Part shown: positions 5,062 to 63,292 of the stretch, one piece after another | Layout: the number at the start of each line of letters is the position of its first letter | Numbering within the stretch: the stretch's first letter is position 1 | Assembly: GCA_037574385.1 (NCBI GenBank) | Contig: GCA_037574385.1_4529.1 | DNA: 64,000 bases | Reading direction: 5' to 3' (one strand) | Source of the DNA: a phage | Program-made: the position numbers and the translations under genes | Notes under the pieces: model-generated | The model's database searches: none | Told to the model about the DNA's origin: nothing | What the model saw: only the letters and a program-made list of their open reading frames with translations

Positions 5062-5262
5062 TCACAAGTTACGTTTAAAAATTTCTGCTACTTCAAGAAG
5101 TTCTTCTTTAGTAGCTGTATCGGTTTGTATTTTATATCGAATTTCTTTAAAGCGTTCTTTAAAGGACTCTGCTGACTCGATATCAAAAAATCTTTGGATA
5201 AGCCGGAATTCCCGGAGCACTGCTTTATCAAAAAGTTCCAAGTCCACGTTATATGTTCTCAT
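5062..5262 (-). CDS. rIIA.1-like small protein
   Basis: 66-aa ORF immediately upstream of rIIA with AAGAGA SD; position and size as T4 rIIA.1. Confidence 0.5.
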   Translation of the reverse strand: MRTYNVDLELFDKAVLREFRLIQRFFDIESAESFKERFKEIRYKIQTDTATKEELLEVAEIFKRNL

Positions 5263-5285: not shown

Positions 5286-5345
5286 AGGGCACTATTACTA
5301 AAGACCATATAATCTATCATCTTATGTGTAATAGTGCCTCAGGCG
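5286..5345. repeat. 11-bp inverted repeat with about 29-nt spacer
   Basis: GGCACTATTAC ... GTAATAGTGCC between the glycosyltransferase gene and rIIA.1. Confidence 0.5.
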
Positions 5346-9683: not shown

Positions 9684-10208
9684 TCATTTTAGCAAAATAA
9701 AATCAACTTGTTCTGCCAATGAACGTCTGAACATTAATTGACAACTTCCGAGGATGAAATCAGGTGCTTCATAGACCGCGATGTAGTATCCTTTAGCTTT
9801 CAAGAGTTCAACATCTACCTGGTCATCAAACCATGCATAAACCGCGTCAACACTTTCAAATCCAAAATAGAACCCTTGAGCCCAATCTTCACTCAATTCA
9901 AATGTGTGCTCAATTCTATAGTATCTTAAGATATTTTGTTCAAGGAGTTTATCTTCATTTACTGTAGGACGATTAGGGACATTATAGTTGTCGCCGTGAT
10001 GGTAGAAATTACCTGAGAGTATTCCATGTTTATCAAGGAACTCCCATGTTTCTTCAGAGTTGTCGGTGCCCGACCAACCGTAAGGTGAGCGAGGTTCTTT
10101 ATTCCAAGAGGTTTCCCAAATTCTGACGGCTTTACCGTCTTCGATGGCAATTCCTGGTAATGATTCACGTTGAGTACAAAAACTACGTTCTACGCGGTAA
10201 ACTAACAT
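9684..10208 (-). CDS. hypothetical protein (174 aa)
   Basis: ORF with AGAGGAGAA SD; early promoter 10235-10263. Confidence 0.55.
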   Translation of the reverse strand: MLVYRVERSFCTQRESLPGIAIEDGKAVRIWETSWNKEPRSPYGWSGTDNSEETWEFLDKHGILSGNFYHHGDNYNVPNRPTVNEDKLLEQNILRYYRIEHTFELSEDWAQGFYFGFESVDAVYAWFDDQVDVELLKAKGYYIAVYEAPDFILGSCQLMFRRSLAEQVDFILLK

Positions 10209-10234
10209 ATTATTCTCCTCTGGTTGATACGGTT

Positions 10235-10263
10235 ATAATATCAAAACCAGAGGAGAAGTAAAC
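10235..10263 (-). promoter_or_regulatory. early promoter (GTTTAC-N17-TATTAT) with spacer complementary to downstream SD
   Basis: Minus strand GTTTACTTCTCCTCTGGTTTTGATATTAT; spacer TTCTCCTCTGGTT pairs with AACCAGAGGAGAA at the RBS. Confidence 0.5.
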
Positions 10264-11212: not shown

Positions 11213-11241
11213 ATTATACTCCATCCATCCTTGGATGTACA
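11213..11241 (-). promoter_or_regulatory. early promoter (TGTACA-N17-TATAAT), CCAAGGATGG-spacer family
   Basis: Minus strand TGTACATCCAAGGATGGATGGAGTATAAT. Confidence 0.5.
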
Positions 11242-11770: not shown

Positions 11771-11799
11771 ATTATACTCCAACCATCCTTGGTTGTAAA
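11771..11799 (-). promoter_or_regulatory. early promoter (GTTTACA-N17-TATAAT), CCAAGGATGG-spacer family
   Basis: Minus strand GTTTACAACCAAGGATGGTTGGAGTATAAT; identical core at 52583-52611 and 53601-53629. Confidence 0.55.
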
Positions 11800-11805
11800 C
11801 TGATT

Positions 11806-22272: not shown

Positions 22273-22461
22273 TTATCGAAAATCAGCTTCAAAAACTTTC
22301 TCGTCATTAATAAATGCTTTAACAAGTGCACTGTTCACTTCGGCGAGTTGTACCGCAACCCACTCGATTTCTTCACGATCACCTGATAACATGATATCTT
22401 TAGTGAACATCTCACCACTTTTAAACCAGCCAATAAAAGTAATTTTAGTTAATTTGCTCAT
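22273..22461 (-). CDS. hypothetical protein (62 aa)
   Basis: Track ORF trimmed to ATG with GAGGAAAT SD. Confidence 0.4.
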   Translation of the reverse strand: MSKLTKITFIGWFKSGEMFTKDIMLSGDREEIEWVAVQLAEVNSALVKAFINDEKVFEADFR

Positions 22462-22775
22462 ATTTCCTCGCAAAATGCCCATTCAGCGTGATAAACTGTA
22501 GCACCTTTAGTATCGTTCATTTGAACTACGTCTACCGGAGAAATTACTCGATAGAGACGTGGTTCACCTCCATAAGAGCGTGCTGCTCGTCCTGCATAAA
22601 TCTTTGCTAAACCGATATCTTCAGTAAAGAATACACGATTCAAGTTTTTCTTACGTCCAGTTTCAGACAGAACTCCTGTTTCTTCAGGAGGACAAAGCAT
22701 GTTTTCGATGTTAGCTGAACTACTTGAACCGTGATAAAAAATCTTAAATTCTGCTTTACAATCGATGGTTTTCAT
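22458..22775 (-). CDS. hypothetical protein (105 aa)
   Basis: GGAGAA SD; early promoter 22802-22830. Confidence 0.5.
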   Translation of the reverse strand: MKTIDCKAEFKIFYHGSSSSANIENMLCPPEETGVLSETGRKKNLNRVFFTEDIGLAKIYAGRAARSYGGEPRLYRVISPVDVVQMNDTKGATVYHAEWAFCEEI

Positions 22776-22801
22776 TTTGTTCTCCAGTAGTTGATAGGTC
22801 T

Positions 22802-22830
22802 ATAATAACACAACTACTGGAGAAGTAAAC
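22802..22830 (-). promoter_or_regulatory. early promoter (GTTTAC-N17-TATTAT) with spacer complementary to downstream SD
   Basis: Minus strand GTTTACTTCTCCAGTAGTTGTGTTATTAT; spacer pairs with CAACTACTGGAGAA at the RBS. Confidence 0.5.
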
Positions 22831-52582: not shown

Positions 52583-52611
52583 ATTATACTCCAACCATCC
52601 TTGGTTGTAAA
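52583..52611 (-). promoter_or_regulatory. early promoter (GTTTACA-N17-TATAAT), CCAAGGATGG-spacer family
   Basis: Minus strand GTTTACAACCAAGGATGGTTGGAGTATAAT. Confidence 0.55.
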
Positions 52612-52616
52612 CTGAT

Positions 52617-54687: not shown

Positions 54688-55215
54688 TTATGCGTGAACC
54701 GTCTTTAAACGTTCTTCAAATTTCCGAAGAGTACTAATACGTTCTGATTTCTGTTTTGTGTAGTTTGCAATACGTTCTGAAGTGAGAGCGTATCGTTCGT
54801 TTACTGTTTCTTTCATGAAGTCAGGGATTTCACGAGAAGCTTTAATTTCATCAAACTTATCGATTACTGCCTGGTCTTCAGCGATTAAATTTTCGTACAT
54901 CTCGATATCTTTCTTGATAAACTCGATATCTTCCTGGGTTACTTTGGATAAACGAGATGCTTTATCCTTTTTGTACTGCTCGTTAGTTTCACGAGACCAG
55001 AATAATGTACGTTTTTTATTAGTGTTTTTGTAGACTTCCACAATTCCAACCGAATCGATGATAACAATCCAATTCCAGCGAGATTTGAAAATCTGACCTC
55101 CGTCCACGGTAATCTCGTTACCATAAGCAACGTCATTAAAGAACTTGCTTTGTGCTTCAGATTTAAATTTACCGTCGTTATAATTTACCAGGTTGAAAAT
55201 ATCTTTAGCGTTCAT
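54688..55215 (-). CDS. hypothetical protein (175 aa)
   Basis: GGAGG SD; early promoter 55243-55270. Confidence 0.5.
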   Translation of the reverse strand: MNAKDIFNLVNYNDGKFKSEAQSKFFNDVAYGNEITVDGGQIFKSRWNWIVIIDSVGIVEVYKNTNKKRTLFWSRETNEQYKKDKASRLSKVTQEDIEFIKKDIEMYENLIAEDQAVIDKFDEIKASREIPDFMKETVNERYALTSERIANYTKQKSERISTLRKFEERLKTVHA

Positions 55216-55242
55216 GTTTTACCTCCAGTAGTTGATAGGTCT

Positions 55243-55270
55243 ATAATAACATAACCATAGACCTTGTAAA
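55243..55270 (-). promoter_or_regulatory. early promoter (GTTTACA-N16-TATTAT); AGGTCTAT/ATAGACCT inverted repeat around -10
   Basis: Minus strand GTTTACAAGGTCTATGGTTATGTTATTATAGACCT. Confidence 0.45.
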
Positions 55271-55273
55271 CAA

Positions 55274-57075: not shown

Positions 57076-58065
57076 TCATTTATAGTACGAATTGTGGTTT
57101 TCTAAGTAGACTTGTTCAAGGAAGTCATCCCAGAAACTCATATCTACTTTTTGTTGCATACCGTTCTTAGCAGCTTGTTCTGCTGCATGTTCAACTTGGT
57201 CGACGATATCTTCTAGGAATTCTTGTACAGTTTTAAACGTATGTTTACCAAGCTTAACATCGAGAATAAATGGAGCATCCTGAAGTGGGTAAACCAGGTC
57301 GCCGGTTTTGTAAATTTCTAAGAGCTGAAGCCCACCACGGCATGCATGACTCAATGCTTTCCAGTCAATACCTTCGTTGGCTTCCGCCTTACGAGCACGT
57401 TCGCCATAGTTCTCTTCCAGTTTAACCAGGATGGCATTGAACTCTTTATTGGTTAACGTATCTTGGAATTTACGGTCTAACAGATTATAGAATGTTTGCT
57501 TACCTGTTTTCTCGTTTTCGGTTTCAACCCACGAAGCAAATTCACCTACAGGCAGAACATTCTTCATATGTGATAAACGAATTACTGCACCATTATCAAA
57601 GTATTGTCCCCATTCATTAGAACGTTTAAGGGCTTGACGAAGAACAGCCAGTCGAGAACCCTTGACGCCATATTTAGAAGCTTGCTTACGGACATACCCT
57701 AAATAAGATTTCATGTTAGTGGTATAGAAACGAGACCTGTTATCTTGAATATACTTCCATACATCAGGCAAATCAGATTTAACTACTAGACTTTGTGGAG
57801 TGTGAAGCATATCTAATGCGACGGTTTCACCATCCGCAGCTAGTTTAAAGAAATATTTGAGACTATACAACTCATGGTCCACGTCGTCTTTTGTGTTCTT
57901 AGAAGATGTGTTATTTGTGTTCTTGCTCATGTGTTCTTTAACGTTACCGGTCAAGATATCACGAGCATGAGGGACATAAATTTCTTTAAAATCGACGTCA
58001 GATTCAGGAGTAGACGTTCCATAAAGGTGGCTACCAAAGTAGCCTTTCATAATTGTTTTCATCAT
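57076..58065 (-). CDS. Pol-beta superfamily nucleotidyltransferase
   Basis: 329 aa; N-terminal GSHLYGTSTPESDVDF (G[SG]-x(9-13)-D-x-[DE] NTase signature); ATGA-coupled to upstream membrane-protein gene. Confidence 0.55.
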   Translation of the reverse strand: MMKTIMKGYFGSHLYGTSTPESDVDFKEIYVPHARDILTGNVKEHMSKNTNNTSSKNTKDDVDHELYSLKYFFKLAADGETVALDMLHTPQSLVVKSDLPDVWKYIQDNRSRFYTTNMKSYLGYVRKQASKYGVKGSRLAVLRQALKRSNEWGQYFDNGAVIRLSHMKNVLPVGEFASWVETENEKTGKQTFYNLLDRKFQDTLTNKEFNAILVKLEENYGERARKAEANEGIDWKALSHACRGGLQLLEIYKTGDLVYPLQDAPFILDVKLGKHTFKTVQEFLEDIVDQVEHAAEQAAKNGMQQKVDMSFWDDFLEQVYLENHNSYYK

Positions 58066-59420: not shown

Positions 59421-59630
59421 CTACCGATTGTGTTTTAAATGTTGATAAAGTTCTTCAACTTGTTTAGGGTCCAAAACAATTAGGTCATTTTCTTGACGAA
59501 GATAAATCCATCCCTTATCCCCAGGGCCATTTTTACAAAACATCACCGTCGTCATATCATCATCTTCAGCGCTTTCAGGTAAAAGTTCAAGTACGCCGTC
59601 TTCAGATTTTCCAGTATAATCGTAAAGCAT
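59421..59630 (-). CDS. hypothetical protein (69 aa)
   Basis: Trimmed to ATG with GAGGATATT SD. Confidence 0.4.
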   Translation of the reverse strand: MLYDYTGKSEDGVLELLPESAEDDDMTTVMFCKNGPGDKGWIYLRQENDLIVLDPKQVEELYQHLKHNR

Positions 59631-59637
59631 AATATCC

Positions 59638-59817
59638 TCACATAATCTCGTTAACATACATTTGCAATTCGGTGTGGGAGTCGGCCATCTTTTTCATTGC
59701 CTTATTGATATCGATATCACCGTCTTCACACCCATGGGCATTTTCCCAATCAGATACAGCATTAGCATACTCTTCAATCAAAAACATTAACTTAGAAATC
59801 TTTTCTTTACGTGACAT
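59638..59817 (-). CDS. hypothetical protein (59 aa)
   Basis: Trimmed to ATG with AGAGGAGAA SD; early promoter 59845-59873. Confidence 0.45.
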   Translation of the reverse strand: MSRKEKISKLMFLIEEYANAVSDWENAHGCEDGDIDINKAMKKMADSHTELQMYVNEIM

Positions 59818-59844
59818 AACGTTCTCCTCTAGTAAGTAAGGTCT

Positions 59845-59873
59845 ACTATAACACAACCTGAGGAGAAGTAAAC
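59845..59873 (-). promoter_or_regulatory. early promoter (GTTTAC-N17-TATAGT) with spacer partly complementary to SD
   Basis: Minus strand GTTTACTTCTCCTCAGGTTGTGTTATAGT. Confidence 0.45.
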
Positions 59874-59885
59874 TGATAGATACAA

Positions 59886-59916
59886 AAAAGCCCCAACCTT
59901 TCGGAAGGGGCTAGTG
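59886..59916 (-). terminator. intrinsic terminator
   Basis: Minus strand AGCCCC..CC-GAAA-GG..GGGGCT hairpin followed by TTTTTTG. Confidence 0.55.
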
Positions 59917-62776: not shown

Positions 62777-63235
62777 CTAGATTTTAATCACTGCTTTAGA
62801 AGCTTTTCCTGGTAGTCGTTTACTGTTAATAATAGCCATTCTACATTGAAGAGTCTTCATTTTGAATGCCGGATTTTCGCGACAAACTGTAAGGCCTAAC
62901 CAAAGATTTCCATCAGTTATTTCTAAACGGCCTGGGCGGTATTCGACACCTTCGACAAAATCTTCATCAACATCTGGACGTGCCGGCATTGATAAAAATT
63001 CTGCAACTTCTTTAACGTGATTTTTTACTTTACGAAATAATTCAAAAACATAATTCTCATCTATTTCTCTCTGGATGGCACGATCTAAGAGATGTTGAGA
63101 ATACTTGATATGAAAGCCCGGTAGTCCAAGAGACTTTGCAGCATCTTTTATACCGGCATTTATTTTGCGGAACTCCGTTTCAAAGATTCGACGGAGTTTA
63201 TTACGGCGGATAAAAACTTCCGAATTGATAGTCAT
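62777..63235 (-). CDS. regB: RegB endoribonuclease
   Basis: 152 aa; MTINSEVFIRRNKLRR..., FHIKYSQHLLDRAIQREIDE..., RLPGKASKAVIK match recalled T4 RegB; early promoter 63264-63292. Confidence 0.9.
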   Translation of the reverse strand: MTINSEVFIRRNKLRRIFETEFRKINAGIKDAAKSLGLPGFHIKYSQHLLDRAIQREIDENYVFELFRKVKNHVKEVAEFLSMPARPDVDEDFVEGVEYRPGRLEITDGNLWLGLTVCRENPAFKMKTLQCRMAIINSKRLPGKASKAVIKI

Positions 63236-63263
63236 TTTGATTTCTCCTCTAGTTTACAGGTCT

Positions 63264-63292
63264 ATAGTAACACAACTAGAGGAGAAGTAAAC
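63264..63292 (-). promoter_or_regulatory. early promoter for regB (GTTTAC-N17-TACTAT) with spacer complementary to SD
   Basis: Minus strand GTTTACTTCTCCTCTAGTTGTGTTACTAT; 13-bp perfect complement AACTAGAGGAGAA at the regB RBS. Confidence 0.55.

Follow-up and report, generated by a model that had tools for sequence, protein, structure and literature searches.

Promoters that lie within RNA hairpins are known from a few genes of phage T4. At e, soc, 49 and I-TevI, and also at mobE of Aeh1, the Shine-Dalgarno (SD) sequence and/or the AUG is held in a helix in RNA coming from upstream promoters, while the inner promoter gives rise to a shorter, translated RNA without the 5' strand (PMC3014915). 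The four T4 genes are the only promoter-in-hairpin examples from that phage in a 2010 review of T4 post-transcriptional control; repression at e is about 100-fold, and the embedded promoters of e and I-TevI are described as late (PMC3014915). A second kind of related element, the PeSL cassette, is a repeated intergenic unit of about 60-100 bp found in T4-type phages (Arbiol 2010, Comeau 2014). PeSL stem-loops have been interpreted as terminators or attenuators, and the cassettes as modules of recombination. For T4 and PST the published drawings place the stem-loops just upstream of the promoter, and in RB49 and phi1 they lie between or overlap the -35 and -10 boxes (Arbiol et al., PMC2839356), where one of them reduced the expression of a downstream lacZ to the same extent as the rrnB T1 terminator (PMC2839356). 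The endoribonuclease RegB, for its part, recognizes a single-stranded 11-nt target, GGAGRAYARAA, and is inhibited by secondary structure (PMC1702504, PMC3014915). Finally, the extra conservation of T4 early promoters has been credited to contacts with RNA polymerase (prereplicative transcription review, PMC2988021).

The DNA analysed here, referred to as the window, is a stretch of 64,000 nt from a Mosigvirus-like T-even phage with 98% identity to phiC120 and Shf125875. The genes of interest belong to T4-like early regions (dda-dexA-motB-cef, gene 41 and tk-vs-regB) and are read from the minus strand. Four sites on this strand share one layout: a GTTTAC -35 box, a 17-nt spacer, a TAnnAT -10 box, 8-9 nt, an SD ending in GGAGAA, 4-6 nt and the ATG. 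All four agree with the sigma-70 early promoter pattern GTTTAC-17 nt-TA(T/C)(T/A)(A/G)T, and sites 2-4 carry a TGn ahead of the -10 box. AT-rich DNA is found upstream of sites 1, 2 and 4, and the T-run of a terminator precedes site 3. At sites 1, 2 and 4 the spacer opens with a 5' arm of 13-14 nt, which 3-4 nt separate from the -10 box, and the SD region about 19 nt downstream is the perfect complement of this arm. The arm of the original prediction is real, but its 13 nt had been equated with the whole interval between the two boxes, of which the arm occupies only the first part.

At site 1, the early promoter of a motB.2 homologue, the -35 hexamer GTTTAC (10258-10263, minus strand, as for all features below) is recognized by its consensus match only. 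The 5' arm TTCTCCTCTGGTT (10245-10257), an anti-SD sequence taking up the first 13 nt of the spacer, pairs at 13/13 positions with the 3' arm AACCAGAGGAGAA (10213-10225). The latter includes the SD GGAGAAUAAUA, which is close to the RegB/S1 consensus, and the -10 hexamer TATTAT (10235-10240) falls within the hairpin loop. The gene (9684-10208) encodes a 174-aa homologue of T4 MotB.2 (phrog_1106, no assigned function). At site 2 the -35 box GTTTAC (22825-22830) directly abuts the stop codon of the upstream ORF. The 14-nt 5' arm TTCTCCAGTAGTTG (22811-22824) is paired throughout (14/14) with the 3' arm CAACTACTGGAGAA (22780-22793), whose SD GGAGAACAAAA is an exact RegB/S1 consensus GGAGRAYARAA. 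The -10 box TATTAT (22802-22807) is again in the loop, and the gene (22458-22775) encodes a 105-aa protein (phrog_2110, no assigned function). Site 4 is the early promoter of regB, with its -35 box GTTTAC at 63287-63292, its 5' arm TTCTCCTCTAGTT at 63274-63286 (13/13 paired), its -10 box TACTAT at 63264-63269 within the loop, and its 3' arm AACTAGAGGAGAA, which includes the regB SD, at 63242-63254. The identity of the gene (62777-63235) as regB, already proposed, was confirmed by a match to Pfam REGB_T4 (E = 6e-69); the repeat ends at 63286 and not at 63288 as first given. The orthologous promoter of T4 regB is on record as typical of the early class (PMC3014915).

Site 3 (59822-59873; -35 box 59873-59868, -10 box 59850-59845) is an early promoter with a degraded hairpin, located in front of a 60-aa DUF7438 ORF whose ATG is at 59817. 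The residual pairing of TTCTCCTC (59867-59860) with GAGGAGAA (59829-59822) amounts to 8 bp only, beside which a short alternative inner helix can form. An intrinsic terminator, GCCCCTTCCGAAAGGTTGGGGC followed by TTTTTT (59884-59911), lies immediately upstream of the promoter. Of at least four promoters originally credited with a near-perfect repeat of the SD, three are thus perfect, and the fourth (59822-59867), flagged as partial from the start, retains 8 bp. In the window as a whole, about 24 early promoters are credible, of which three show full SD pairing and 2-4 more contain 5-8 bp of anti-SD sequence. The description of these elements as a repeated module holds insofar as the cassettes are repeated and PeSL-like, but an SD-pairing arm is present in only 3-5 of the approximately 24.

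The SD-complementary repeats in the promoter spacers are real and non-random. An exhaustive scan of the 64 kb for perfect inverted repeats with arms of at least 13 bp and loops of 3-30 nt returned three, exactly those of sites 1, 2 and 4, compared to a mean of 0.05 and a maximum of 1 in 200 dinucleotide-preserving shuffles. The 81-nt RNA folds of the same sites have predicted energies of -24.9, -25.0 and -21.3 kcal/mol (z = -5.4, -6.1 and -3.8), whereas the 81-nt fold of site 3 is no better than shuffled sequence (-15.1 kcal/mol, z = +0.3, not significant). When SD-sequestering duplexes were computed upstream of every ORF start in the window, sites 1, 2 and 4 were the strongest (-21 to -23.5 kcal/mol, the next best being -15.5). 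An Rfam search of the whole window gave no match at gathering score. Chance, or plain copying of a cassette, is ruled out by the shuffles together with the site-specific compensatory changes described below.

The four cassettes are paralogous repeats, joined by the direct-repeat families D4-D7 (out of D1-D7 in the window), so that sequence identity alone proves little about selection. The informative part is the inner stem. The inner 5 nt are TCTGG/CCAGA, AGTAG/CTACT and TCTAG/CTAGA at sites 1, 2 and 4 respectively, both arms changing together. Further variants came from a pattern scan of IMG/VR and a scan of the whole T4 genome (TTCTCCGGTTTGACAT/ATGTCAAACCGGAGAA, TTCTCCTCTTTTCT/AGAAAAGAGGAGAA and TTCTCCTGTAGATG/CATCTACAGGAGAA are examples). 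Inward pairing of at least 5 bp beyond the TCC...GGA anchor was observed at 16 of 46 distinct promoters, compared to about 3% when arms were cross-paired between promoters. A gapless alignment with the SD as its anchor was preferred to a MAFFT alignment of the regB leaders, in which the stems fell out of register. For 34 distinct T-even stems the covariation score was 0.476, against 0.170 ± 0.017 after shuffling (reached in 0 of 500 shuffles) and only 0.08-0.16 in slid registers. These stems were picked for being paired, which makes the percentage of paired positions circular but not the diversity of pair types, and the inner pairs are mixtures of UA, AU, GC and CG.

The regB gene carries an SD-pairing hairpin in five lineages, with a different stem in each: the window, T4 (with T4-like contigs), Salmonella phage STML-198, Citrobacter phage CF1 and Klebsiella phage KPV15. 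Since the inner stems differ with compensating changes, covary, and are accompanied by a hairpin that regB keeps across lineages, these comparisons indicate selection for the pairing rather than copying. In T4, seven of about 41 candidate promoters are of this kind (motB.2, nrdC.8, regB, denV, alt.-3, alc and ndd.4), and the six hairpins that were folded reach -18 to -24 kcal/mol (z = -4.2 to -5.8). A 1986 sequence paper on the 58-65 kb region of T4 reportedly noted potential stem-loops before ipIII, ipII, denV and orf61.9 (regB). T4 and the window phage both have the motB.2 hairpin, despite a protein identity of only 34% and different upstream neighbours, which ties it to the downstream gene. 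The nrdC.8 orthologues (window 54688-55271, T4 L052 3358-3943) are 83% identical but differ in hairpin class. In T4 the SD takes part in a 12-bp hairpin that includes two G·U pairs, and the counterpart in the window has only an 8-bp repeat around the -10 box, which leaves the SD free. Judging from this pair, the type of hairpin turns over between genera. As a separate observation, the annotated ATG of T4 ndd.4 (166764; L171, record about 166749-166807) lies inside the 3' arm, upstream of GGAGGAA, and an in-frame ATG 15 nt downstream, at normal SD spacing, may be the real start.

The geometry of the sites suggests how the hairpin may act. The 5' arm is in the spacer, and the -10 box and the putative start site are in the loop, so that RNA started at the promoter cannot contain the 5' arm. 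With a start about 7 nt past the -10 box, the usual spacing as derived from the consensus, this RNA is predicted to begin 1-3 nt before the 3' arm. On the other hand, the upstream ORFs of sites 1, 2 and 4 end 0-4 nt before the -35 box with no terminator, and read-through is therefore expected. In T4, middle RNA arises partly by extension of early transcripts (PMC2988021). The two kinds of leader were compared by partition-function folding. In read-through RNA including 120 nt of upstream sequence, the probability that the SD is unpaired is 0.05, 0.03 and 0.05 at sites 1, 2 and 4, compared to 0.35, 0.68 and 0.42 in promoter-started RNA and to about 0.4 for other early promoters in the long form. 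Thus the SD is predicted to be about 95% paired in read-through RNA and to be much more open in RNA started at the promoter, as originally proposed.

We consider that the SD-pairing hairpin probably, if by a modest measure, serves as a translational insulator against read-through transcripts. Each element would be a T4-type sigma-70 early promoter set in an intergenic space of near-zero length, the first 13-14 nt of its spacer being an anti-SD sequence. A polymerase starting at the embedded promoter would produce a leader of about 20 nt in which the SD is free and can be cleaved by RegB, and from this short mRNA the gene would be translated in the immediate-early burst. A polymerase arriving from the upstream gene would transcribe both arms, and the resulting helix of 13-14 bp, of about -20 kcal/mol, would bury the SD and leave the gene untranslated on read-through (delayed-early or middle) transcripts. 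The hairpin would in this way act on translation to insulate the gene from transcription that comes from upstream, a task that falls to an intrinsic terminator elsewhere. Two corollaries may follow: the buried GGAG would be shielded from RegB, which needs single-stranded RNA, and the ORF, left untranslated, may be exposed to Rho-dependent termination and to decay. In this scheme the start sites, the occurrence of read-through RNA in the phage and any effect on translation are inferred. Whatever its other role, a helix of a predicted -20 kcal/mol over the SD must depress initiation.

The distribution of terminators is consistent with such an insulator. An intrinsic terminator within 70 nt upstream was found at none of 40 distinct strong SD-pairing hairpins, compared to 48 of 235 other promoters (p = 4e-4), and in 47% of cases where the SD hairpin is degraded. 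When promoters were grouped into orthologue-like clusters, the counts were 0/19 for SD-pairing hairpins and 25/153 for the others (p = 0.08). The window and 100 kb of T4 taken by themselves give 0/7 and 7/49, too few for statistical power. Orthologues of the site-2 gene are instructive. In all 16 of one set (L174-L189) a terminator precedes the promoter, about 110 nt upstream of each match, and only 5-6 bp of anti-SD pairing are left; in three of them (L180, L184 and L185) the -35 box and the 5' arm have given way to the terminator, and the 3' arm CAACTACTGGAGAA survives. The perfect 14-bp stem exists only in the lineage of the window, which has no terminator there. Site 3 and one distant regB orthologue follow the same pattern, a terminator being present and the hairpin degraded or lost. 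A terminator before the early promoter and an SD hairpin occupy the same junction, and they appear to be alternative solutions at orthologous junctions. They differ in their parts and probably in their effect. An intrinsic terminator is a GC-rich hairpin with a U-tract that stops transcription, while the hairpin described here has no U-tract and would stop translation. The stems of the SD hairpins are followed by A-rich sequence (GGAGAAUAAUAUG, GGAGAACAAAAUG), and the terminator scan makes no call at these sites. As there is no U-tract after the 3' arm, a canonical intrinsic terminator is ruled out.

A second class of hairpin complicates this picture. Inverted repeats of 7-13 bp, such as TTGGTAGGATT/AGTCCTACCAA, enclose the -10 box and end about 13 nt past it, before the SD, on which they have little predicted effect. 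In the window they accompany minus-strand promoters with -35 boxes at 59421, 1057, 44679, about 285, 55271 and about 9690, and in T4 (L051, L052 and L170) they occur at 57990, 73939, 20612, 133331 and 129918. Neither strand asymmetry nor a G·U bias was detected in this class. Upstream terminators are absent next to these repeats too (0/27, compared to 32/174), and with both classes combined and clustered the count is 0/36 (p = 0.005). Since the second class avoids terminators equally, there is some selection on a hairpin at the junction that is independent of the SD, and a function common to both classes, other than SD masking, could be what is selected. Such repeats could be an RNA 3' barrier, an attenuator or a DNA-level feature. 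The contrast drawn in the original prediction, with an SD exposed in promoter-started RNA and hidden in read-through RNA, is supported in silico by the geometry, by the folding probabilities (0.35-0.68 and 0.03-0.05), by covariation, by conservation with regB and motB.2 in several genera and by the exclusion of terminators, but part of the selection may act elsewhere.

The strongest rival explanation is in line with the PeSL literature. In this reading the stem-loop acts on the upstream transcript, as an attenuator or terminator or as a barrier to 3'-end exonucleases, and its overlap with the SD is a by-product of fitting a hairpin into a promoter and a 25-nt leader. We regard this as a serious possibility, though an unlikely one. 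All the parts of a PeSL (AT-rich stretch, strong early promoter, stem-loop, SD and ATG) are found at each of the four sites, the cassettes are repeated in the window, the RB49/phi1 stem-loop matched rrnB T1 in its effect on lacZ, hairpins that leave the SD alone avoid terminators just as strictly, and nrdC.8 switches class between T4 and the window. Orthologous junctions with swapped 5' halves (L042, L046 and L174-L179) also hint at PeSL-like recombination. However, the A-rich sequence that takes the place of a U-tract after the 3' arm is not that of a canonical intrinsic terminator, and the motB.2 hairpin follows the downstream gene rather than the upstream one. Moreover, the 34 distinct stems register their 3' arm exactly on GGAG(A)A despite the costlier loop of 17-19 nt that this entails, and the depression of initiation by a helix over the SD would be expected in any case. 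The hairpins described here differ from PeSL stem-loops in that the 3' arm is the SD itself; none of the five stem-loop positions in the PeSL papers pairs with an SD, and translation is not mentioned there. The insulator and PeSL readings could nevertheless be joined through Rho: read-through RNA with an ORF that is not translated is a natural substrate for Rho, and SD masking could therefore itself attenuate transcription.

Other repeated elements of the window deserve mention beside these cassettes. Two early promoters (11771-11800 and 52583-52612, minus strand) have an identical 30-nt core, GTTTACAACCAAGGATGGTTGGAGTATAAT (family D3), which holds a small hairpin lying wholly within the spacer (AACCA-AGGA-TGGTT), and degenerate copies are found near 11240 and 53630. 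A perfect 11-bp inverted repeat, GGCACTATTAC and GTAATAGTGCC separated by 29 nt (5288-5338, minus strand), is located about 25 nt upstream of an ATG near 5261, with no early-promoter consensus at this repeat. The initial transcribed region AGACCTATCAAC(TAC) is conserved in many early promoters of the window, with or without a hairpin (for example 22801-22785, 55242-55226 and 57000-56985), and its T4 counterpart is ACAACTATCAACTAC. This conservation suggests either concerted evolution of the cassettes or some function of the leader.

The relation of the hairpins to RegB leads to another explanation, in which the primary role of the helix is to hide the GGAG of the SD so that long polycistronic RNA stays uncut while the short promoter-started mRNA remains sensitive to RegB. 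With their terminal GGAGAA and the A-rich tail after it, the 3' arms resemble GGAGRAYARAA, and the fit is 11/11 at site 2 and 10/11 at site 1. The SDs of T4 motB.2 and regB are documented RegB targets (PMC1702504, PMC3014915), and GGAG sites of middle and late RNA are resistant (PMC3014915, PMC1702504). Because a RegB target must be single-stranded, which at these sites depends on the transcript, the helix should also shield long transcripts and would make the same site resistant in them; no description of such hairpin-based resistance was found in the papers covered. As the primary role, however, this is improbable. Sites 3 and 4 fit the consensus poorly, T4 denV has the hairpin even though its SD is a poor RegB substrate for reasons of sequence, and a RegB shield would coexist with translational masking, not replace it. 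The listing of RegB as an early protein in time-resolved omics of T4 (PMC9697503) is consistent, but not decisive.

Translational coupling seems slightly less probable still. On read-through mRNA only ribosomes finishing the upstream ORF would then open the SD, and translation of the gene would not be silenced but would follow that of its upstream neighbour in proportion. The upstream stop codons are only 6-10 nt before the 5' arm, and a ribosome terminating there could melt the base of the stem, with some coupled translation as a result. Given the usual ribosome footprint, such a ribosome would reach only the outer 0-4 bp, and the CUCC:GGAG pairing would stay closed.

Which nucleic acid is folded can be approached from the non-Watson-Crick pairs. 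In an unbiased census of the whole T4 genome, the stems contain 12 G·U and 2 A·C pairs (p = 0.013; alt.-3 and alc share an arm), and for 6 of 7 T4 hairpins the sense RNA is predicted to be 5-10 kcal/mol more stable than the antisense. Both observations indicate the sense transcript, and the T4 stems thus point to sense RNA as the folded strand. The pooled test, with 15 G·U and 7 A·C pairs, is not significant (p = 0.13); the pooled IMG/VR counts are 14 and 6, those of SD-pairing stems alone being 5 and 3. The stems of the window are purely Watson-Crick and therefore uninformative on RNA versus DNA. A DNA-level palindrome (operator for a dimeric protein, cruciform aiding promoter melting, or recombination site) is the least credible explanation: the stems of the window are indeed perfect palindromes enclosing the -10 box and PeSL cassettes do recombine in RB49 and phi1, but the arms differ in sequence between sites and yet remain complementary, as expected of a folded strand and not of a protein operator, which is thereby ruled out, the G·U pairs of T4 stems would be A·C mismatches on the opposite strand, and loops of 17-19 nt are poor for cruciform extrusion.

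With regard to the T4 precedents, the SD-pairing early-promoter hairpin looks like a variant of a known logic. It has in common with e, soc, 49 and I-TevI the predicted pairing of the SD in the longer RNA, here over 13-14 bp, and a promoter inside the structure. The likening of these elements to the T4 promoter-in-hairpin genes, made in the original prediction, was thus apt in its logic, but the late promoter of e and I-TevI delays translation (PMC3014915), whereas here a sigma-70 early promoter contributes its own spacer as the 5' strand. The late promoter sequence TATAAATA is absent at the sites. The predicted effect differs accordingly from that at e and I-TevI, as translation would be restricted to the immediate-early burst. 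In the reviews of T4 post-transcriptional control and prereplicative transcription and in the PeSL papers, we found no earlier translational reading of the T4 early-promoter hairpins. On the whole, the sequence comparisons argue well for a conserved structure, and an insulator role for it is plausible.

A broader and more tentative proposal, for which we have rather less confidence than for the insulator itself, is that these elements make up a Tevenvirinae-wide "immediate-early pulse" cassette combining an anti-SD spacer with a RegB-type SD. The short mRNA would be translatable and RegB-sensitive, the read-through RNA would be silent, RegB-resistant and probably Rho-prone, and the cassette would replace an intrinsic terminator at junctions that leave no space between the genes. 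It would account for part of the unexplained extra conservation in the spacers of T4 early promoters and would have a share in the shut-off of early protein synthesis, itself incompletely understood. The insulator role can be put to a direct test in T4, for which all the genetic tools are at hand. If it holds, its practical outcome would be a simple annotation rule, with a terminator or an SD-masking hairpin as the two options at a junction, and it would link early promoters, the targeting of SDs by RegB and PeSL cassettes, which have so far been studied separately. A class documented for four late-expressed T4 genes would gain about seven more from T4, regB, alc, denV and motB.2 among them, together with relatives of these from several genera. 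The promoter spacer, usually treated as nearly free sequence, would then double as a translational silencer, a compact way for these phages to tie the translation of a gene to one promoter only.
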